A DNA stretch of 64,000 nt from Nannocystis sp. (GTDB lineage Bacteria; Myxococcota_A; Polyangia; Nannocystales; Nannocystaceae). Positions 13,353-48,095 of this stretch are shown one piece after another; the stretch's first letter is position 1; each line of letters starts with the position of its first letter. A program made the translations under genes and the position numbers. The stretch spans positions 196,669 through 260,668 of the forward strand of contig NZ_JADJNN010000008.1 of the NCBI RefSeq assembly GCF_016714285.1. The letters are read 5' to 3'. Under the pieces are notes generated by a model. That model was given only the letters and a program-made list of their open reading frames with translations. It made no database searches and was not told the origin of the DNA.

Positions 13353-13470
13353 TCAGGTGCGAAGGTCCCGAGGGACAGGTGCGAAGGGGCAGGTCCCGAG
13401 GGACAGGTGCGAAGGGGCAGGTTGCAACGGACAGGTGCGAATGCGCATGTCCCGAGGGACAGGTGATCGG
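13353..13470. repeat. 4 x 28-bp tandem repeat, each unit carrying a GTCCC-GA-GGGAC palindrome (member of the CCTGTCC/GGACAGG palindrome family)
   Basis: Units caggtgcgaaggggcaggtcccgagggacagg repeated with small changes; lies just 3' of the lipoprotein gene stop (13481). Confidence 0.75.
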
Positions 13471-13480
13471 GAGCAGGCTG

Positions 13481-15015
13481 TCAGCGCGGGAGCAGGCGGG
13501 CGTCGCGAGCGGCGAGGGCGAAGGCGCGGCGGCGGGCGTCGTCGCTGGCCGGGCTGTCGTCGATCGGGGCGGCGGCGGCGACGCGGAGGCGCAGGCCGGC
13601 GAGGCTCTCGTCGTCGAGGCGGGCCAGGAGATCGAGGAGCAGGCCGACGCGCATGGGATCGCGGGCGGGGGCGTCGAGCTCGCGGCGGAGCAGGGCGCGG
13701 GCGGCGTCGGGGCGGTCGCGCAGCAGCAGCGCGGCGCGGGCGAGGGCGTGGCGGCGGGTGAGCTCGGTGGGGCTGTTGGCGGCGGCGGTGGCGGTGTGGT
13801 GGTCGCCGTGGGGCTGCTCGCGGCGGTGCGCAGCCAGGTCGCGGCGAGCTCGGCGATCGCCTGGTCTTCGGGCCAGGTGAGGGGGACGCGGGGCGGTAGG
13901 GGGCGGCTGCCCTGCTCGGGCGGCGCGGGGCTCAGGGCGCGGGTCTCGTCGATGCGGCGCTCGAGCAGGTCGGCGTACTCGAGGAGGTCGCGGTCGGCGA
14001 GCTGGGCGCGCAGCATCTCGGCGACGGGGGCGACGCCGTGCGGGCTCGGGGGTTCGCCGGCGAGGAAGAGGGCGCGCTGGAACACGAGCTCGACGAAGCG
14101 GTGGTCGAACAGGCGGTCGAACTCGTGGAGGAGGGGGAGCAGGGCGCTTGGGCCCGGGCCGCCGCTGCGGGCGAGGCGTTCGGCGACGCCGCTGCCCTGG
14201 AGGTGTCGGCGGGTGCGCTGGTGTTCGACGGCGAGGAGGGCGTCGGCGCTGAAGTGCGGCGTGCGCTCGAGGGCGAGGACGGTGGTGAGGAGCTGGGCTT
14301 CGGTGCTGGCGAACAGGGCCTCGAGGCCGGCGACGCGGCGTTGCCAGTACATGCGACACAGCTCGCGGCCGAAGTGGAGGAAGCGACCGGCGAGCACGCG
14401 GGCGAGCGGGGGCAGGGGCTCGTCGGCGAGGCCGAGCTGCAGGAGGGCCTCGTGGTGGACGCGGGCGAGGTAGGCGGTGGCGCGGGTGCGTTGGTCCTGG
14501 GACAGGCCGCTCTGGGTCTGCTGGACGATCGCCAGCTGCACGGCGGCCAGCACCGCGTCGGTGACCGGGCTGACGGTGGCGGTGACGGGGTCGGGGAGCT
14601 CGGTGAGCGGGGCGAGGCTGGGGTCGGCGCGATCGAGGGCGACGAGGCGGGCGATGCCGGCGAGGTCGGGGGTGGCGGCGAGGCGGGGGGCGAGGGCGGC
14701 GGCGGCGGCGGGCGAGTCGGCCATGCGCAGGGCGTGGCGGAGGATCGCGGGGGTCGTGGGCGTGGTCGGGCAGAGGTCGAGGAGGATCGCGGCGTCGGGT
14801 GGGTGCACGGCGGCGGCGACGGCGAGCTGCTCGCAGGTGTCGATGCGCGCGGGCAGGGCGGCGGGCGCGGGGGCGGCAGGTGGTGGGACGGCGGCGACGG
14901 TGTGGCGCGCGAGCGGCTCGGGCAGGCCGGTGGGGTCGGGCTCGTCGGCGCAGGCCGACAGGGCGACCAGCGAGGCGACCAGCGAGGCGAGGACGAGGCG
15001 GCGCATGCGAATCAC
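13481..15015 (-). CDS. Hypothetical lipoprotein (LVALSAC lipobox); apparent frameshift near 13790-13810 in a Pro/Thr-rich tract
   Basis: The N-terminal 400+ aa are in the frame of ORF 13150..15015. The natural-looking C-terminus (...RHALARAALLLRDRPDAARALL...LLPR*) is in the frame of ORF 13481..15358. Junction falls in a ccaccgccgccgcc run. Confidence 0.5.
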
Positions 15016-30788: not shown

Positions 30789-33200
30789 GTGCCCGCTCGC
30801 GTGCGGTTCGATGTGCCGGTGGTCTTCGACTCGGGGACCAAGCGCTTCGATCGCAAGACGCTGGATCAGGCGATCCAGATGATCTCGATCGCGCCGGAGG
30901 GCTGGTACCTGGTCGTCAAGAACCCGGCGTCGGACAAGAGCCACCCGCGGACCGGGGCGCTCAACAACCTGCCGAACCTCGACACCGGCCGCAAGGTGAA
31001 CATCCCGGGGCCGGTGTCCTTCGCGCTGTGGCCGGGCCAGATGGTGCGCGTGCTGCAGGGCCACCACCTGCGCTCGAACCAGTACCTGCTGGTCCGCGTG
31101 TACGACGAGGAGGCGGCCAAGACCAACTGGAAGAACGCGGTGATCAAGCCGCAGAAGACCGGCGAGGGCGAGCCGGAGGGGGAGGGGATCAAGCACCTCG
31201 AGGCGCTGCCGGACCTGACCATGGGCAACCTGCTGGTCATCCGCGGCACCGAGGTGTCGTTCTACATCCCGCCGACCGGCGTCGAGGTGGTGCCCGACGT
31301 CGACGGCAACTACGTGCGCGAGGCGGTCACGCTCGAGCGCCTCGAGTACTGCATCCTGCTCGACGAGAACGGCTCCAAGCGCTTCATCGTCGGGCCCGAC
31401 GTGGTGTTCCCCAAGCCGACCGAGGTGATCGTGCGGATGCGGGGCTCGCGGAAGTTCCGGGCGATCGAGCTGAACGAGAACTCGGGCCTGTACCTCAAGG
31501 TCATCGCGCCCTACGAGGAGAACGGCGTCGCCTACAAGGTCGGCGACGAGATCTTCCTGACCGGCCGCGACACGATGATCTACTTCCCGCGCACGGAGCA
31601 CGCGATCGTCAAGTACGGCGATCAGGAGAAGCACCACGCGGTCGCGATCCCGGCCGGCGAGGCGCGCTACGTGCTCGACCGCATGAACGGCAAGATCAGC
31701 CTGGTGCGCGGCCCGGCGATGTTCCTGCCCGACCCGCGGCGCGAGGTGATCGTGCGCCGCGTGCTCGACCCGAAGACGGTCGCGCTGTGGTTCCCCGGCA
31801 ACCGCGAGGCCTACGAGCACAACCGCCGCCTGGCGGCCCAGAGCGCGCCGCCGTTGACGGCCGACGCCGGGGCCTTGAGCGCGCCGGCGCCGGCCCAGGC
31901 CAAGGCCCCCGCGGGCGCGCCGGCGGCGGCCAAGGCCGCGTCCGGGGCGATCGCCACCCGCGAGACCCAGGCCCCGCCGCCGCCGCCCAACGAGTTCGCG
32001 GGCGACGACTTCAACCGCAACCAGAACTTCACCGGGCCGCGGACGATCGTGCTCGACACCCGCTTCGAGGGGGCCGTGGCGATCGACGTGTGGACCGGCT
32101 ACGCGGTGCTGGTGGTCAGCAAGACCGGCGAGCGCCAGGTCGTCAGCGGGCCGCACACCCGCCTGCTCGAGTACGACGAGAACCTGCAGGTGCTCGAGCT
32201 GTCGACCGGCACGCCGAAGTCGGACGCCAACCTCTACAAGACGGTGTACCTGCGCACGCTCAACAACAAGGTGACCGACGTCGTCGAGGCCGAGACCCTC
32301 GATCTCGTGCGCGTGCACCTGCAGCTGTCGTACCGGGTGAACTTCGAGGGCGACCCGGCGCGCTGGTTCGAGGTGGAGAACTACGTGAAGTTCCTGACCG
32401 ACCACCTGCGCTCGCTGATCCGCCACGCGGTGAAGCGCCACGGGATCGAGCACTTCTACGCCAACGCGGTGAGCGTGCTGCGGGACATCGTGCTCGGCAC
32501 CGTCGGCGAGGACAGCAAGCGCCCGGGTCGCCGCTTCGACGAGAACGGGATGCGCATCTACGACGTCGAGGTGCTCGAGGTGGCGATCGGCGACGAGACG
32601 ATCGCCGAGCTGCTGGTCCAGGCCCAGCACGCGGCGGTGCAGCAGACGCTGCAGCTGGCCGCCGAGCAGCGCCGCCTCGAGGCGACCCGGCAGAGCGAGT
32701 CGATCGGGCAGCAGATCGCGGAGCTGCAGTCGCAGACGCGGCAGAAGCAGAGCGGGCTCAAGACCCTCGAGGTCGAGCAGCTGCTGCGCCACCAGCTGGC
32801 CGAGCAGGCGGCGAAGATCGAGCTGCACGAGCGCCAGCAGACGGCGCTGCTGACCGAGCAGGAGCGGGTGGGGACGATCCACCAGGCCGAGCTGGCCCGC
32901 CGCAAGGCGGCGCAGGAGCTCGAGCTGTCCCTGGCGCAGCAGAAGCTCGAGCAGAAGCTGCGCGAGCTGGCGGCCGAGGTGAGCGCGGTGGCCGAGAAGG
33001 CCCACGCGGTCTCGCCGGACCTCATCGCGGCGCTGCAGGCCTTCGGCGACAAGGCCCTGGCCGGCAAGATGGCCGAGAGCATGGCCCCGCTGGCGATCCT
33101 CGGCGGCGAGAGCGTGTCGGAGGTGCTCAGCCGGCTGCTGCGCGGGACGCCGCTGGCCCGCCTGCTCGAGGCGAAGGCCGTCGAGGCGAGCAAGACCTGA
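30789..33200 (+). CDS. Major vault protein (MVP) homolog: N-terminal MVP repeats, SPFH-like shoulder, C-terminal coiled-coil cap-helix
   Basis: Recognisable similarity to eukaryotic MVP: repeat blocks (LEYCILLDENG ~ HNYCVILDPVG; GDEIFLTG..IYFP ~ GDEWLFEGPGTYIP), shoulder block TDVVEAETLDLVRVHLQLSYRVNFE ~ [25 protein letters not shown], then about 200 aa of Q/E/A-rich coiled coil. Confidence 0.8.
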   Translation: MPARVRFDVPVVFDSGTKRFDRKTLDQAIQMISIAPEGWYLVVKNPASDKSHPRTGALNNLPNLDTGRKVNIPGPVSFALWPGQMVRVLQGHHLRSNQYLLVRVYDEEAAKTNWKNAVIKPQKTGEGEPEGEGIKHLEALPDLTMGNLLVIRGTEVSFYIPPTGVEVVPDVDGNYVREAVTLERLEYCILLDENGSKRFIVGPDVVFPKPTEVIVRMRGSRKFRAIELNENSGLYLKVIAPYEENGVAYKVGDEIFLTGRDTMIYFPRTEHAIVKYGDQEKHHAVAIPAGEARYVLDRMNGKISLVRGPAMFLPDPRREVIVRRVLDPKTVALWFPGNREAYEHNRRLAAQSAPPLTADAGALSAPAPAQAKAPAGAPAAAKAASGAIATRETQAPPPPPNEFAGDDFNRNQNFTGPRTIVLDTRFEGAVAIDVWTGYAVLVVSKTGERQVVSGPHTRLLEYDENLQVLELSTGTPKSDANLYKTVYLRTLNNKVTDVVEAETLDLVRVHLQLSYRVNFEGDPARWFEVENYVKFLTDHLRSLIRHAVKRHGIEHFYANAVSVLRDIVLGTVGEDSKRPGRRFDENGMRIYDVEVLEVAIGDETIAELLVQAQHAAVQQTLQLAAEQRRLEATRQSESIGQQIAELQSQTRQKQSGLKTLEVEQLLRHQLAEQAAKIELHERQQTALLTEQERVGTIHQAELARRKAAQELELSLAQQKLEQKLRELAAEVSAVAEKAHAVSPDLIAALQAFGDKALAGKMAESMAPLAILGGESVSEVLSRLLRGTPLARLLEAKAVEASKT

Positions 33201-33230: not shown

Positions 33231-33533
33231 GTACTCCGACACCGCGGTGGTGAAGAAACGGCGCGAACGACCTCGTCCGCGCCGTTGCTTCAGCGTCGCT
33301 TGCGATACCAGCGCGGCTCGGCGTGCACCGCGGTGCCGCCGGTCTGCATGCTCATCCCGGGCTAAGAGGGGTGCACAGCGGCCCCGCCGTCGAGCCGCCG
33401 CCAGGGCGGGCTGGCGCCCGGTTGCCGCGAGCTGCTCGGGGTGCGCCGATCGTGAGGTCACCGGGCGCGGGACCCAGGAGGCGACCTGCGAGGTCGAGCC
33501 CGGACGCGTCAGCACCTGGATCTCCCAGGCCTG

Positions 33534-34256
33534 CTAAACAGCTTGAGGAAGGCCGGGTTCTCCGAGGTCTGCAGGGCCCCGAGCCTGCCCTCGGGGCCCG
33601 GCCCGGGCGGCTGTACTGCCGACAGCAGCGCGCAGGGCCAGGGCACACGCCCGCCAGCTCGATCGCCGCCGGGATGGCTGCGTTGAGTGCGTTCCAGCGG
33701 ACGGAGGATCCGCTGAGGTTGGCACTCGGCCAGGTGGGGGGGACGCACGGGCATCGGACAGGCCGATGTAGCGGACCTTGCCCGCACGCACGAGGTCGGT
33801 CAGCGTGCCGATCACCTCCTCGACCGGCGTCAGCCCGTCCCATGCGTGCAGCCAGTACAGGTCGATGTAGTCGGTCTGCAGCCGGCGCAGCGAGCCCTCG
33901 AGCGCGCGGTAGATGTTCTTGCGCGCGTTGCCGCCGGCGTTCGGATCGCCGGGGCCCGGACTGAACGCGAACTTGGTCGCCAGCACCACGCGATCGCGGG
34001 TCCCGGTCTCCTTCAAATGGGTGCCGATGATCGTCTCGCTGCTGCCGTTGGTGTAGCCGTCGGCGGTGTCGACGAAGTTGCCGCCCGCCTCGAGATAGGC
34101 CGCGAGGATCGCCCGCGAGGTCGCCTCGGGCGCGCCCCAGCCCCACTCTGTCCCGAAGGTCATGGTCCCCAGGCACAGCGGGCTGACCCGCAGTCCGGTG
34201 CGTCCGAGGAGGCTGTAGTCGGCGAGGCTGGCGATCCTTGACGTCGGCTCGGTCAT
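33534..34256 (-). pseudogene. Aldo/keto reductase pseudogene (paralog of 21745..22794) with internal deletion/frameshift
   Basis: First about 165 aa align with the intact AKR up to ...VRYIGLSD, then the frame degenerates. A C-terminal AKR remnant (LNAAIPAAIELAG) lies in another frame. The central 100+ aa are missing. Confidence 0.6.
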
Positions 34257-34365
34257 GGTCGGTGGTTATGCACCCGGCGCGCCCCGGCGCGCCAGCCCTC
34301 GCGTCCGCGCGCAGCTTCGCTGTGTCCACAAGCCGCGGCCCCGCGGATACAATGCCGGGCTGGGC

Positions 34366-37300
34366 ATGCACGAGAACCCCTACGTCGGCCCGCGCGCCTT
34401 CGCGGCCGGGGAGCGGCTGTTCGGACGCGACCGCGAGCTCGCCGACCTCGTCGACCTCGTGATCGCCGAGCGCATCGTCCTGCTCTACGCCCCCTCGGGC
34501 GCGGGCAAGAGCTCCCTGCTGCACGCCGGCCTGATCCCGCGCCTGCGCGCCGAGGGCCTGGTGCCGCGGCCGGTCGCGCGGGTCGGGCTGCCGCCGCCGC
34601 TGACCTGCGCCGACCGCTTCACCCTCAGCGTGCTGCTCGGCCTCGAGGAGGATGTCCCAAAGGACAGGCAGACCCCGCTCGCCACGCTGGCCCAGCTGCG
34701 CCTGGTCGACTACCTCGATCGTCGACGCGAGGGCGACGAGCCCGAGGTCCTGATCCTCGATCAATTCGAGGAGCTGCTGACGATCGACCCCGGCGGGCGC
34801 GCGGCCAAGCTGGCCTTCATGCGCGAGCTCGGGGTCGCCCTGCGCCGCGCCGATCGCTACGCCGTGCTGGCGCTGCGCGAGGACTGGCTCGCCGCGCTCG
34901 ACCCCTACCGCGGCGCCATCCCGACCCGCCTGCGCACCAGCTACCGCCTCGATCTGCTCGGCCCGGCCGCCGCCCTCGCCGCGATCCAGGGCCCGGCCGC
35001 GGCCCGCGGGGTGCGCTTCGCCGAGTCGGCCGCCAGCAAGCTGATCGACGACCTGCGCCAGATCCGGGTCGAGACCCCCGACGGCGGCGTGCGCGTCGAG
35101 CCGGGCCCGAGCGTCGAGCCGGTGCAGCTGCAGGTCACCTGCCGCACGCTGTGGTCGCGGCTGTCCCCAGGGACAGCCGAGATCCTGCCCGCCGACCTCG
35201 CCGCGATCGGCGACGTCGACCACGCGCTCTCCGGCTTCTGCGACGACGTGCTCGCCGCCGTCGCCCGCGCCTGCGCCACCCCCGAGCGCCTGCTGCGGGC
35301 CTGGCTCGCCCGCCACCTCGTCACCGATCGCGGCCTGCGGACCCAGGTGCTGCGCGGCGCCGGGACCAGCGAGGGCCTCGACAACCGGGCCCTCGCGGCG
35401 CTGGTCGACGCCCACCTGGTCCGCGCCGACGAGCGCCGCGGCATGACCTGGTACGAGCTGGCCCACGACCGCCTGGTCGCGCCGCTGCTCGCCAGCAACG
35501 CTCGCCACGCCGAGGCCCACCTCGGGCCGCTCGAGCGCCAGGCTGAACTTTGGGACAGGCAGGCCCGACCCGAGTCGCTGCTGCTCGCCGAGCCCGCGCT
35601 GCTCGACCGCGCCGCCGCCGAGCCAGGCCCGCGTACGCCCGCCGAGCTGGCCTTCCTCGCCGCCTGCCAGCAGCTGCGCCGTCGTCGTCAACGCGAGCGC
35701 CGCAGCGTCCGCTTCATCGCCGGGCTCGCCGTGCTCGCCTGCGCTGGCCTGGTGGCAGCCAGCGTCGCCGCGGTCCGGGCCCGCCACAGCGCCGCCCGGG
35801 CCGAGGACATGCGCGGCAAGGCCGAGCGCGAGCGCAGCGAGGCGGACAGCGCCCGGGCCCAGGCCGAGGCCGCGCGCCAGCTCGCCCTCTCGCGCCAGCT
35901 CGCGGCCCAGGCCCAGACCCTCCCGCTCGTCGACTACGAGCTCGCGGCCCTGCTCGCGGTCGAGGCCAGCGCGCGCGCCCCGGCGGTCGAGGCGCGCGGC
36001 CCTCTGCTCGGCCTCGCCGCCCGCTGGCCGCGCTTTCGCGGTCTGCTCGACAGCGACAACGAGGGCGCCTACGGCCTCGCCGTCGACCCGCAGGACGGCG
36101 CCGCGTACGTCCACTTCGGCGCGCTCGGTCTGCGCAAGTACGGCCGTGGCCGCGTCGCCACGGCGCTGCAGCGCGACCCGGTCTCGGTCCTCGCATTCGC
36201 CGCTGCCGGGCCGCTGTTCGCCGCGCTCGGCAGCGAGTCCAACGTGGCCCTCCGCGCTCGCAAGGACGGCGCTGTTGTCCGCGAGATCGGGCGACCCTTC
36301 GCGCCCGCCGACACCGGCGTCGCCGCGGCCCTCTCGCCCGACGGCGCCACCCTCGTCGTCGGCAGCGATCGCGGTGAGCTCATCGCCTTCAAGGTCGCCG
36401 ACGGGCGCGAGCTGTGGCGGGTCGCCGGTCGCCCCGATCTGGGCGGCCTGGTCGTCACCGCCGACGCCGCCTTCGCCGTCGCCCGTACGGGCATCGTCCG
36501 CCACGACCTCGCCGACGGCCACGAGATCGCCGCCCTCGAGCTCCCGATCGCGAGAGTTGCGAGCTGGCCGGGGCGGGCCGTGTTCGCCGTCCTCCCGCCG
36601 TCCAGCGACCCCGCGGACGGCCTCCTCGGCCCGCCGCAGCTGGTCGACATGGACACCGCCAGCATCCACCGGCCCGTCGATCGCACGCCGGCCAACTACA
36701 CCGCGATCGCCCTCCATCCCACTGGCTTCGACATCGCCGCCAGCGTCTGTGAGGGTGAGTGTCGCAGCATCGAGCTGCTGGTCTGGGACGGCCGCAGCGC
36801 CGAGCTGCGGCTGCGCAGCTCGCTCGGCGCCGTGCGCCCCGAGGCGATCGTCTACGAGGCCAGCGGCGAGACCGTCATCGTCGCCGCCTTCGACCGCCTG
36901 CTCCGCCACGACGTCCGCCCGCCCGCGACCGTCGACCCGGACACCGCCGCGGCCGTCTTCCTCGCCGACGATCGCCTGATCACGGCGCACGCCACGGGCC
37001 TCTCGCGCTGGACCCTCGATCCCCTGCGTCGCGTCGACACCATCCCGTGGGAGCTCAACGCCGCCGACCTCCGCGTCACCCGCGATGGGCGGCGCGCCGT
37101 GATCGTCACGGGCGAGGGCCGGGCCGTCGCGTACGACCTCGAGACCCGCGCCCGCCAGTTCGACACGCCCGCGCCGATCGCTGTCACGCGCGCCGCGATC
37201 GGGGAGCTCGCCGACGGTCGCCTCGCCGTCGCCGGTCAGGACGATAGCAGCAACCAGATCGTCGCGTGGGACGCCAGCAGCGGCGCCGTCCTCGGCCGCC

Positions 37301-38038
37301 AGCGGCTCCCGGACGGCCCCTTCTCCGACGCCGGCATCTCGTGGCCCGAGTGGAGCAGCGACGGCCACATCCTCACCAGCACCTGCCTGCGCAGCACCTT
37401 TACCTGCGTCGAGTGGCGGCTGTGGCGATGGGACCCGACCCATCCCGATCGGCCGCCCGAGCAGCCCCCTCCCGGCCCTCGCGGGCCAGATCGACGACTT
37501 CGACACCAGCCCCGACGGCCGCGCCCTCGTCGTCAGCGCCGGCGGGACTCTGGTCCGCTGGAGCCTCCCGGAGCTCCGTCCGCTCGCCGTCCAGCGCAGC
37601 GACGCCGCCTGGGGCGGCAGCCTGGCCCACGGCAAGGACGGCAGCTTCATCGCCGCCGCGGGCCAGTGCGGCGACCGCCCCGACTGCCCCGGTTCCGGCC
37701 TGCAGCTGCTCGACGCCGTGACCCTGCAGCCGATCGGCGCCCCGCAGGTGATCCGCGACGGCCCCTTCTTCCGCGTCCTCGCGGCCGGCCGCGATCACGT
37801 GCTCACCCGCTCGGACCTCAGCGTCGAGCTGTGGGACCTCCGCCTCGCGCAGCTGCAGCGCAGCGCCTGTGAGCTCGCCGCCCGCGAGCTCGCGCCGGAC
37901 GAGTGGCAGCGCCACCTCGGCGACCTGCCGTACCGGCCGATCTGCAGCGAGCTGGCCGCGGCCCGGGGGGGGGGGGGGGGGGGGATCGGGACCGCCCGGC
38001 CCGGATCGTGTCCGGACCGCCCCGCGTCGGGCCCGTGA
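34366..38038 (+). CDS. nSTAND-type P-loop NTPase (NPYVGPRAF...GRDRE...APSGAGKSSL) + helical domain + TM helix + coiled coil + C-terminal beta-propeller; frameshift near 37440-37470
   Basis: N-terminal Walker A; Walker B (ILDQFEE); hydrophobic segment FIAGLAVLACAGLVAASVAAV; repeated beta-strand-rich C-terminal units. The last about 190 aa (ending ...EWQRHLGDLPYRPIC...) are in the +1 frame (ORF 37718..38038). Confidence 0.6.
37965..37984. repeat. Homopolymer run of about 20 G inside the C-terminus of the NTPase gene
   Basis: gcccgggggggggggggggggggggatcggg read directly; it would encode Gly6-7. Confidence 0.9.
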
Positions 38039-38088
38039 TCGTGCTCCGCGGTTGACCGCCCCGGGTCCGCCCCTGCTACCGTGCCCGC

Positions 38089-39759: not shown

Positions 39760-39828
39760 CCTGTCCCTTCGGACAGGTGCAGGCGCTCGCAGGGCGGGCA
39801 CGCCCTGGGCCTGTCCGAAAGGACAGGC
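39760..39828. terminator. Two adjacent hairpins of the CCTGTCC-N4-GGACAGG family (cctgtcccttcggacagg; gcctgtccgaaaggacaggc) between convergent genes
   Basis: Perfect 7-8 bp stems with 4-nt loops, between the OPT stop (39750) and the FNR stop (39844). Confidence 0.65.
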
Positions 39829-41730: not shown

Positions 41731-41747
41731 CTGTCCGCGGGGACAGC
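41730..41747. terminator. Hairpin gctgtccgcggggacagc (CCTGTCC/GGACAGG family) between convergent genes
   Basis: Directly follows the TAG of 40924..41730. Confidence 0.55.
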
Positions 41748-46291: not shown

Positions 46292-46312
46292 ACCTGTCCG
46301 GAGGGACAGGTC
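46291..46312. terminator. Perfect 9-bp-stem hairpin gacctgtcc-ggag-ggacaggtc immediately after the dnaJ-like stop
   Basis: Canonical member of the CCTGTCC/GGACAGG palindrome family. Confidence 0.6.
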
Positions 46313-47354: not shown

Positions 47355-48095
47355 TGGGGGGCGCCCGGCAGGCTCGAGAAGCCGGAGGTCCGGGGGGGGG
47401 GGAAGCTGCCGCCCTCAGGGGGCCGCCGCAGGGGCGCCGGGGGGGGGGGGGGCCCCGGCCGGGCGGGGCGGGCCCCCCCGGCCCCCCGGGGGGGGGGGGG
47501 CCGCCCCCGGGGGGGGGGGGGGGGGGGGCCGCGGCGGGGGGGGGCGGCGCGGGGGGGGGGCCGCGGGGGGGGGGGGGGGGGAGGGGGCCCCGGGCGCCCG
47601 GGCCGGGGGGGGGGGGGGCGCGGGGGGGGGGGGGGGGGGGGCCCCGGCGGGGGGCCGCCGGGGGGGGCGGGGGGGGGCCCCGGGGGGGGCGCCCCGGGGG
47701 GGCGGGGGGGGGGCCCCGGGGGGGCCCCCCGGGGGGGGGGGGGGGGGGGCGCGGGGGCCCCGGGGGGGGGGGGGGCGGGGGCGGGGGCCCCCCGGGGGCG
47801 GGGCCCCGGGGGGGGGGGGGGGGGGCCCCCGGGGGGGCCCCCGGGGGGGGGGCCGGGGGGGCGGCGGGGGGGGCCCCCGGGGGGGGGGGCGGCGCGGGCC
47901 GGCGCCGCCCGGGGGGGGGCCGGGGGGGGCCCGGCCCGCGGCGGGGGCGGGGGGGGGGCGGGGGGGGGGCCGGGGGGGGGAGGGGGGGGCGCGGGGGGCG
48001 CCCGGGGCGGGGGCCGGGGGGGGCGCGGGGCCCGGGCGGGGCCGGGGGCCGGGGGGGGGGGGGCGGGGGGGGGCGGGGCGGGGGGGGGGGGGCCG
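47355..48095. repeat. About 740-bp G-rich low-complexity tract (G runs of 10-25 nt with sporadic C/A), intergenic between lipA and the phosphatase gene
   Basis: Read directly. Composition incompatible with normal coding; the plus-strand 'Gly-rich' and minus-strand 'Pro-rich' ORFs are translation of homopolymers. Confidence 0.9.

Follow-up and report, generated by a model that had tools for sequence, protein, structure and literature searches.

A predicted membrane-spanning nSTAND1 NTPase with a tandem beta-propeller sensor, encoded by an orphan gene of Nannocystis

A stretch of 64,000 nucleotides (nt) from Nannocystis sp. (RefSeq assembly GCF_016714285.1, contig NZ_JADJNN010000008.1, positions 196,669 to 260,668; hereafter the window) carries, from position 34366 onwards, a gene for a STAND-type NTPase. 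The encoded protein belongs to the nSTAND1 family, retains the catalytic and STAND motifs and has one hydrophobic helix after the winged-helix domain, followed by a stalk and a tandem beta-propeller; its gene is an orphan, standing in a housekeeping synteny. The explanation we favour, with a probability of about 0.62, is that of an intact NLR-like STAND of about 1,200 amino acids (aa), with nSTAND1, transmembrane (TM) helix and beta-propeller in this order, which is inserted with its N-terminus inside and its C-terminus outside (N-in/C-out) and acts as an orphan sensor, while the frameshift and the G-rich tail of the sequence as given are artefacts.

The gene starts with the ATG at 34366 and reads MHENPYVGPRAF..FGRDRE..PSGAGKSSLL, in a stretch of DNA of 70-76% GC. 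A single frame is open up to about 37465, after which the +1 frame continues up to a TGA at 38036-38038; the list of open reading frames (ORFs) thus holds a 1,205-codon frame (34255-37872) whose final ~130 codons are apparently out of frame, and a second frame (37718-38038) that makes sensible sequence onward. As a reference we used P0001, encoded at locus L001 of a Nannocystis sp. metagenome-assembled genome (MAG; GCA_016717175.1, contig JADKFZ010000004.1) and recorded there as 'hypothetical protein IPO88_12545 [Nannocystis sp.]'. P0001 has 1,200 aa and is 99% identical to the window protein in a protein search; its locus is syntenic with the window and its MAG 99.5% identical. Compared base by base (blastn), the two coding sequences differ by 20 substitutions, and the sole indel is the extra C at 37465. 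With one C taken out of the C5 run at 37465-37469, the two frames fuse into a product of 1,223 aa from ATG 34366 and the reading ...PPEQPLPALAGQIDDFD... returns, identical to P0001; past the frameshift, the shifted frame runs on for 193 codons without a stop, at 99% identity to the relative. Other samples supplied four orthologous genes, all of them intact. The window gene is probably an ordinary, intact member of its family, of about 1,200 aa.

The end of the window ORF differs from that of the relative as well. P0001 terminates in ...CSELAAAP* (...GCG GCC CCG TGA in the DNA of L001, followed by repeats), whereas the window has a run of exactly 20 G (37965-37984) in place of 'CGTGATCGTGATCC...', that is, of the stop codon and the first unit of a 36-39-nt tandem repeat. 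In L001 this repeat occupies 13592-13765 between the nSTAND1 gene and the next gene, encoding an OPT oligopeptide transporter (3.9 copies according to Tandem Repeats Finder); it begins within the final codons of the gene, has a 'CCG TGA'-like string in every unit and appears collapsed and garbled in the window at 37964-38040. Because the relative ends in ...CSELAAAP* where the window has the G-run, the alignment marks the final 24 codons of the window ORF as spurious and ...CSELAAAP as the native end. The window holds 31 runs of at least 8 G and no run of at least 8 C, a strand-asymmetric error signature. On these comparisons the frameshift and the 20-G run are most likely errors of assembly or base calling and not biology, and neither should be read as phase variation or pseudogenisation before the reads are checked. 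Programmed frameshifting was considered and rejected, as neither the 99%-identical relative nor any orthologue has a break in its frame; a phase-variation tract was rejected too, since the 20-G run overwrites non-G sequence including the stop codon and is one of a strand-asymmetric class of poly-G runs.

The N-terminal module matches Pfam nSTAND1 (PF20703) over aa 5-401, scoring 125.5 bits where the gathering cutoff is 27.1 (E 5.1e-36) and covering positions 1-376 of the 379 in the profile, AAA_16 and AAA_22 giving sub-threshold matches only; no Pfam match to NB-ARC (checked to E 1) or NACHT was found in the protein. UniRef names the relative P0001 'nSTAND1 domain-containing NTPase'. An NPYxG...F...GR[DE]xE motif (NPYVGPRAFAAGERLFGRDRE, aa 4-24) lies directly ahead of the P-loop, with P5, Y6, G8, P9, R10 and G20 at least 90% conserved and R21 and E24 invariant in alignments of 55 and 50 sequences (at least 90% conserved in one of 120). 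Invariant residues also include P43, S44, G45, G47, K48 and S50 of Walker A (55 and 50 sequences), D132, Q133, E135 and E136 of Walker B (120 homologues), R171 and the GxP proline P210 (alignments of 50-120 homologues), and E364, L365, H367, D368 and R369 of an ELAHDR motif, placed by the structural model in a strand-helix region (E352-365/H368-385). The STAND signature of a nucleotide-binding domain followed by a GxP helical domain and a winged-helix domain with an MHD-like His is therefore complete. The STAND definition attributed to Leipe and co-workers (2004) reportedly asks for a Walker A GxxxxGK[ST] and a Walker B hhhhD followed by acidic residues, and both are found here.

Fold searches with the NTPase returned Orc/Cdc6, archaeal STAND-like ATPases, plant and animal NLRs and MalT as neighbours, at 10-14% identity; fold alone is insufficient to tell a STAND from Orc/Cdc6, and it is the sequence profile that separates them. 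Since a phmmer search of the NTPase module against the PDB sequences found no relative, there is, by sequence, no solved nSTAND1 structure. The family comprises 22,551 cluster representatives at E <=1e-3, in nearly all of which the NTPase begins within the first ~10 residues (at residue 4 in the window protein), leaving no N-terminal effector. An earlier note on this DNA, made from the sequence alone, had named the protein an nSTAND-like NTPase, and the profile match and motifs bear this out; an ordinary housekeeping AAA+ protein, considered as an alternative, is argued against by the nSTAND1 profile.

The hydrophobic segment FIAGLAVLACAGLVAASVAAV (aa 450-470) comprises 21 uncharged residues, with a Kyte-Doolittle (KD) 19-residue mean of 2.36, and is preceded directly by RRRRQRERRSVR. 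An equivalent helix (KD >=2.0, ~62 aa past W396, a residue invariant among homologues) occurs in 119 of the 120 best homologues and in 112 of 116 further representatives of 50%-identity clusters, 231 of 236 in total, with KD values up to 3.56; it is kept in position, not in sequence. Among the 120 best it is absent from P0040 (1328 aa) alone, a protein with two nSTAND1-matching stretches and a fused C-terminal Peptidase_C25-like domain instead. Arginine and lysine are concentrated before the helix, with 8 in the preceding 15 residues against 4 in the following 15 in the window protein (family means 5.3 and 2.2). In an AlphaFold2 (AF2) model made for full-length P0001 (mean predicted local distance difference test score, pLDDT, 89.7), the segment has a pLDDT of 44-68 and is not packed onto any domain. 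The claim of one TM helix between the NTPase module and the propeller thus stands as a strong prediction, and the alternative, that no TM segment would be predicted, is not the case.

Several features past the helix differ from those before it. Among 214 homologues, the number of cysteines is even in the post-TM module of 167 and in the NTPase module of 121. Among 55 sequences, Cys pair 795/799 is complete in 37 and wholly missing in 18, and pair 1007/1014 complete in 46 and missing in 9, with no sequence holding a single member of either; pair 1168/1193 is complete in 54 (C1168 in 55, C1193 in 54). Such co-occurrence is the pattern expected of disulfides, and we infer as much for these pairs. 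In relatives, the place of the propellers after the helix may be taken by LysM+CBM9, Lcl_C, FGE-sulfatase or GH113 modules. For LysM, CBM9 and GH113 the target is carbohydrate of the cell wall or outside the cell.

Downstream of the NTPase module (1-420), comprising nucleotide-binding, helical and winged-helix domains, the AF2 model has a helix at 425-466, a low-confidence break at 462-477, a helix at 478-518 and two capping helices. The distance from F430 to R510 among homologues follows two heptad ladders (52-59-66-73-80-87... and 60-67-74-81-88-95), 72 of 82 sequences falling into two of the seven residue classes, as would be the behaviour of a register-keeping coiled-coil signalling stalk. 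The coiled coil of the earlier note thus has its counterpart in the coiled-coil-like stalk helix at aa 478-518 and its heptad-stepped lengths. Beyond the stalk, a beta region of ~600 aa (557-1157) has 52 strands, equivalent to ~13 blades and hence to two propellers, followed by three terminal helices within 1160-1198. The propeller predicted C-terminal of the TM helix is present, then, at a size larger than the ~500 aa first supposed and in the form of two propellers. Foldseek with the full-length model ranks Apaf-1 (3SHF, 3SFZ; E ~1e-27) at the top, followed by tandem WD40 proteins, while sequence profiles give a weak Pfam PQQ_2 match and, in NCBIfam, a sub-threshold BamB-like propeller only.

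Owing to the positive-inside bias, the co-varying Cys pairs, the heptad-stepped stalk and the LysM, CBM9 and GH113 replacement modules, the protein appears, with good support from sequence comparison, to be a single-pass inner-membrane protein of N-in/C-out topology, with a cytoplasmic ATPase and with stalk, propellers and disulfide-stapled C-terminal helices predicted to be periplasmic. The earlier note had called a membrane-anchored STAND unusual, a view that holds only by comparison with the characterised STANDs: the helix is found in nearly all homologues and was already tabulated in 2021. In the source data of Kaur et al. 2021 (eLife 10:e70394, Fig. 2 source data 1), nSTAND1+TM has 412 entries and nSTAND1+TM+BetaPropeller 278, and the tables of this study, from the Aravind group, annotate the TM at the same position as in the window protein. 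A literature search found no paper on the membrane topology of nSTAND1 proteins, the TM being mentioned only in architecture tables; topology is undiscussed in the main text of Kaur et al. 2021 (eLife 10:e70394) and in STAND surveys of 2020 and 2026.

Substitution rates were compared between L001 and its orthologous locus L002 by the NG86 method (genomes of 72-75% GC). The ratio of nonsynonymous to synonymous rates (dN/dS) is 0.62 for the whole gene, and 0.13-0.36 for the neighbouring genes for an aldo/keto reductase (AKR), the OPT transporter (0.125), an FNR-like reductase and a response regulator. By region it amounts to 0.40 for the NTPase, 0.50 for TM helix and stalk, 0.90 for propeller A, 0.76 for propeller B and 0.29 for the C-terminal helices; of these parts the sensor evolves fastest, as would fit a recognition receptor.

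The occurrence of partner genes was surveyed at 79 related loci of reference genomes, mostly from Chloroflexota and spanning six or more phyla. In 65 of them a gene of ~690 aa encoding a CHAT+SIR2_2 protein lies immediately upstream on the same strand, and a Peptidase_C25-like gene often follows downstream. The same arrangement exists in the MAG of the relative, ~125 kb from the orthologous gene, where the CHAT+SIR2_2 gene overlaps the start of the nSTAND1 paralogue P0029 by 4 nt (locus L084). This locus is a defence-island-like cluster of TIR_2+Peptidase_C14+SIR2_2, OmpA-like, CHAT+SIR2_2, nSTAND1 (P0029), Eco57I-like and Peptidase_C25-like genes, and P0025 likewise stands in an OmpA / CHAT-SIR2 / nSTAND1 arrangement. 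At L023 (1028-3739) the partner has an extra N-terminal class III adenylate/guanylate cyclase ahead of CHAT and SIR2_2, making a triple-effector protein of 903 aa.

No such partner was found by tblastn in the window or at L001, L002 or L004, and the myxobacterial copies P0009, P0011, P0013, P0017 and P0061 also lack one. The neighbours in the window are a vault-shoulder/SPFH protein, a divergent AKR upstream of the gene, the OPT transporter, the FNR-like reductase and a response regulator with a PatA_N domain, with no defence genes among them. Orthologues of ~70% identity have the same order, AKR / gene / OPT / FNR-like / response regulator, and the OPT start lies 50-160 nt downstream of the gene (50-68 nt at L002 and L004); a functional link to the transporter was considered and dropped, the adjacency being limited to one close clade. 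PADLOC has no model matching the STAND protein, its sole hit being to mad8 at the P-loop level (E 0.034). Of the role in conflict or signalling first suggested for this gene, the family-level part is upheld by the upstream CHAT-SIR2 genes, and the part concerning the window copy is not, as this copy has neither effector nor defence neighbourhood. A comparison with Avs and other antiphage STANDs gave no match either, with no curated model fitting, no fused N-terminal effector and no defence island.

The main alternative to an envelope-spanning sensor of conflict is that the orphan subclade has been co-opted as a housekeeping envelope or nutrient receptor, for instance together with the OPT transporter, the oligomerising NTPase signalling to a cytoplasmic partner. 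The stable synteny at ~70% identity, the short gap to the OPT gene at L002 and L004, the neighbourhood without defence genes, the several other orphan copies of myxobacteria and the legacy name 'high-affinity carbon uptake protein Hat/HatR' borne by some family members all speak in its favour. Yet the OPT linkage is confined to one close clade, where it could reflect shared ancestry, and more distant orphans have unrelated neighbours; a propeller dN/dS of ~0.9 against 0.125 for OPT is atypical of a nutrient sensor and typical of a recognition receptor; and CHAT-SIR2, TIR and caspase effectors are associated with the family as a whole. We consider this receptor role rather unlikely. It is also unlikely, and somewhat more so, that the gene is a recent pseudogene of the window strain, in which the extra C cuts the reading frame short inside the second propeller, the stop loss is real and the orphan decays after loss of its effector. 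Frameshift and missing stop are indeed present in the window as given, and orphan status and elevated dN/dS would agree with decay, but the defect is a one-base homopolymer difference followed by 193 open codons nearly identical to the relative, the four orthologous genes are intact, and the same window contains a patch of 95 deletions (33354-33754) and a poly-G stretch (47390-48095) while holding no long poly-C run.

A soluble, cytoplasmic, Apaf-1-like STAND, with the hydrophobic helix as part of an HD2-like linker and propellers sensing a cytoplasmic ligand as in all characterised STANDs, appears very unlikely. The best full-length structural match is the cytosolic Apaf-1, the literature presents STANDs as intracellular receptors and an N-terminal signal peptide is absent; this has to be set against the length, hydropathy and conserved position of the uncharged segment, the positive-inside bias, a model that packs the helix on no domain, covarying Cys pairs and an even-Cys bias only past the helix, the LysM, CBM9 and GH113 modules at the same position in relatives, and the TM placed there in the tables of the Aravind group. 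Some considerations weigh against the explanation favoured here. Hydropathy, charge bias and Cys statistics bear on the topology indirectly, and the homologues, related by descent, are no independent samples; with no effector in cis, no defence genes nearby and no PADLOC match, a conflict role of the window copy is extrapolated from its relatives; the high dN/dS could be relaxed constraint and not diversifying selection, and NG86 is inflated at 72-75% GC, although the neighbours were computed likewise; and the frameshift can be proven an error by raw reads alone.

For the N-in/C-out orphan sensor, a mechanism can be proposed from the architecture, the operon partners of relatives and the behaviour of STANDs such as Apaf-1, NLRs, MalT and Avs. 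A ligand outside the cytoplasm, in the periplasm or at the surface, would bind the fast-evolving propellers, and the heptad-register stalk and TM helix would pass the signal inward. The ADP-locked NTPase might then be released, exchange ADP for ATP and oligomerise under the membrane, where, at canonical loci, the oligomer would activate the co-encoded CHAT protease-SIR2 NADase executioner. The output of the orphan could be the CHAT-SIR2 protein of the paralogous operon elsewhere in the genome, acting in trans, or another pathway. More tentatively, and with somewhat less than even odds in our estimate, this may extend to a large NLR-like STAND clade of thousands of 50%-identity clusters (Chloroflexota, Myxococcota, Acidobacteriota, Verrucomicrobiota, Actinomycetota and others), whose members would be single-pass TM receptors signalling outside-in through a heptad stalk to an NTPase that fires CHAT-SIR2. 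Their disulfide-stapled propeller, LysM, lectin or glycosidase-like sensors would survey the periplasm or surface, orphans would be extra sensors acting in trans, as sensor and helper NLRs do, and the rare-codon motif described below would be a dedicated control element.

Table 1. Features of the nSTAND1 gene in the window, with positions counted from its first nucleotide
Feature	Position	Strand	Basis or remark
nSTAND1 NTPase module (aa 1-420)	34366..35625	+	NPYVGPRAF...FGRDRE motif, P-loop domain, helical domain with GxP, winged-helix domain
Walker A PSGAGKSS (aa 43-50)	34492..34515	+	Invariant residues in homologue alignments
Palindrome copy 1, GAT GTC CCA AAG GAC AGG (DVPKDR), in frame	34651..34668	+	Weak RNA hairpin, z -0.17
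Walker B VLILDQFEE (aa 128-136)	34747..34773	+	Invariant residues, 120 homologues
Palindrome copy 2, GGCTGTCC-CCAG-GGACAGCC (RLSPGTA), in frame	35159..35178	+	RNA fold -24 kcal/mol, z -5.9
ELAHDR motif of the winged-helix domain (aa 364-369)	35455..35472	+	Resembles the NLR 'MHD' histidine
Half-site GAA CTT TGG GAC AGG (ELWDR)	35545..35559	+	No hairpin
Arg-rich, predicted cytoplasmic flank RRRRQRERRSVR (aa 438-449)	35677..35712	+	R/K counts
Predicted single TM helix FIAGLAVLACAGLVAASVAAV (aa 450-470)	35713..35775	+	Hydropathy, conserved position
Helical stalk: coiled-coil-like helix (aa 478-518) and two capping helices (aa 521-553)	35776..36030	+	AF2
Tandem beta-propeller sensor (aa 556-1157, ~13 blades), frameshift inside	36031..37837	+	AF2, Foldseek
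C5 run with one C more than the relative; cause of the frameshift	37465..37469	+	blastn against L001
C-terminal helices (aa 1158-1199), motif AC..A.REL...EW...L......C	37838..37963	+	AF2, Cys conservation
Probable spurious ORF tail: 20-G run and garbled repeat in place of the native 'CCG TGA' stop and tandem repeat	37964..38038	+	Alignment with L001 13596-13740

The gene also contains a nucleotide motif shared with the rest of the window. TGTCC-N4-GGACA occurs there in 9 exact copies (0.05 expected), two of them within the gene at 34653 and 35162, where in-frame palindromes had been noticed earlier, and a related pattern with up to 2 mismatches has 23 matches in the window against 3 expected. 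The sequence of copy 1, GAT GTC CCR AAG GAC AGG, is kept in 7 of 7 myxobacterial nSTAND1 genes, paralogues included, always with the rare GAT and AGG codons, and the arms of copy 2 are kept in the orthologues at L002 and L004 while its loop varies. Copy 2 holds the only ACA codon of the gene, and a half-site at 35545 its only GAA and CTT and a second AGG; copies 1 and 2 and the half-site together account for the only ACA, CTT and GAA codons, both AGG and two of the three CCA codons. The half-site had been taken for a third palindrome, a reading that was dropped as it forms no hairpin. Conservation of the rare-codon palindrome argues for selection at the nucleotide level, and its retention inside paralogous genes deserves a separate look.

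Outside the gene, three copies stand directly 3' of stop codons (OPT, response regulator and 46295) and form 8-9-bp tetraloop hairpins (z -2 to -4). Sites in the window are located at 13364-13461, 39762-39825, 41732-41745, 46295-46308, 58909 and 59452, and elements of this kind occur in relatives at L001 23374-23600, L085 2248-2410 and L087 12508-12670. The hairpin family is extendable to CTGTCC-N4-GGACAG and often lies directly after stops or in tandem arrays with 28-56-nt spacing. These hairpins are possibly REP-like (repetitive extragenic palindrome) or terminator-like elements of Nannocystaceae.

Other defects of the window emerge from the comparison with the relative. A 400-nt patch at 33354-33754, flanked by nearly gapless sequence of 99.5% identity, has 95 small deletions (1-5 nt) with respect to L001 and is a low-quality assembly patch; it shortens the minus-strand AKR gene (33534-34256) to 240 aa, compared with 370 aa in the relative. 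Upstream of it, the gene at 30789-33200 (+) encodes a bacterial homologue of the eukaryotic major vault protein (MVP shoulder, E 1.8e-28; Vault_3 repeat; SPFH/Band 7 region), and at 30809/30810 the window is missing 242 nt of the relative (L001 6057-6298), a loss that takes the 5' end of this vault-like gene and shortens its product, begun at a GTG, from the 838 aa of the relative to 803 aa. At 47390-48095 homology to the relative stops at a G/C-only stretch of ~700 nt with 30 runs of 8-20 G and 80% GC, where L001 (23374-23603) has a tandem array with TGTCCGCGGGGACA hairpins in its units; the stretch appears to be an artefact that base calling or assembly produced over a repeat rich in hairpins. 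In the neighbourhood of the orthologue at L004 (8217-11053), the OPT and FNR-like genes are set apart by a small toxin/defence insertion consisting of a HipA-like kinase gene and a GmrSD_N gene.

In bacteria, plants and animals alike, STAND/NLR proteins are regarded as pattern-recognition receptors of the cytosol. If the topology proposed here is right, the nSTAND1-TM proteins constitute a widespread, uncharacterised branch with its sensor outside the cytoplasm, extending NLR-type surveillance to the cell envelope, and CHAT-SIR2 with its nSTAND1-TM-sensor partner would offer a tractable two-gene module for transmembrane STAND activation. The window protein itself represents an already catalogued architecture and not an unusual one; what interest remains lies at the level of the family, in the outside-in topology proposed for it, its pairing with CHAT-SIR2 and the motif conserved inside the myxobacterial genes. 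Kaur, Iyer, Burroughs & Aravind 2021 (eLife 10:e70394) describe both the solo protein HBB96021.1 (Blastocatellia, 1196 aa) and operons of the form 'TIR+DrHyd -> nSTAND1+TM+BetaPropeller'. Their proteins share with the window protein the Pfam family, domain order, size, NTPase at the extreme N-terminus and one TM followed by beta-propellers, with solo and effector-linked forms both occurring. They differ in partner, TIR+DrHyd in their operons as opposed to CHAT+SIR2_2 in the relatives sampled here and none for the window copy, and the window propellers are too diverged for canonical WD40 models to match.

Among characterised proteins, Apaf-1, the AP-ATPase scaffold of the apoptosome, likewise has a STAND nucleotide-binding oligomerisation module followed by two tandem beta-propellers as ligand sensor. 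However, it is cytosolic, with an N-terminal CARD, an HD2 linker, 7+8 blades and NB-ARC, whereas the window protein has no N-terminal adaptor, a TM helix and stalk in the place of HD2, ~13 blades and no NB-ARC match; judging from the model, the likeness is one of fold and architecture only. Avs1-7 and bNACHT have in common with it the STAND NTPase core, a C-terminal repeat sensor and a predicted ligand-triggered oligomerisation. Unlike the window protein, with its TM helix, no fused effector and no PADLOC match, these are soluble, fuse their effector N-terminally and mostly detect phage proteins in the cytoplasm with TPR-like sensors. A precedent for the topology alone comes from propeller-bearing receptor Ser/Thr kinases such as PknD of M. 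tuberculosis, in which a cytoplasmic kinase is joined through one TM helix to an extracytoplasmic beta-propeller sensor. PknD and the window protein are unrelated in sequence, and the output of PknD is a kinase and not a STAND NTPase, so that the likeness lies in the logic of the topology.

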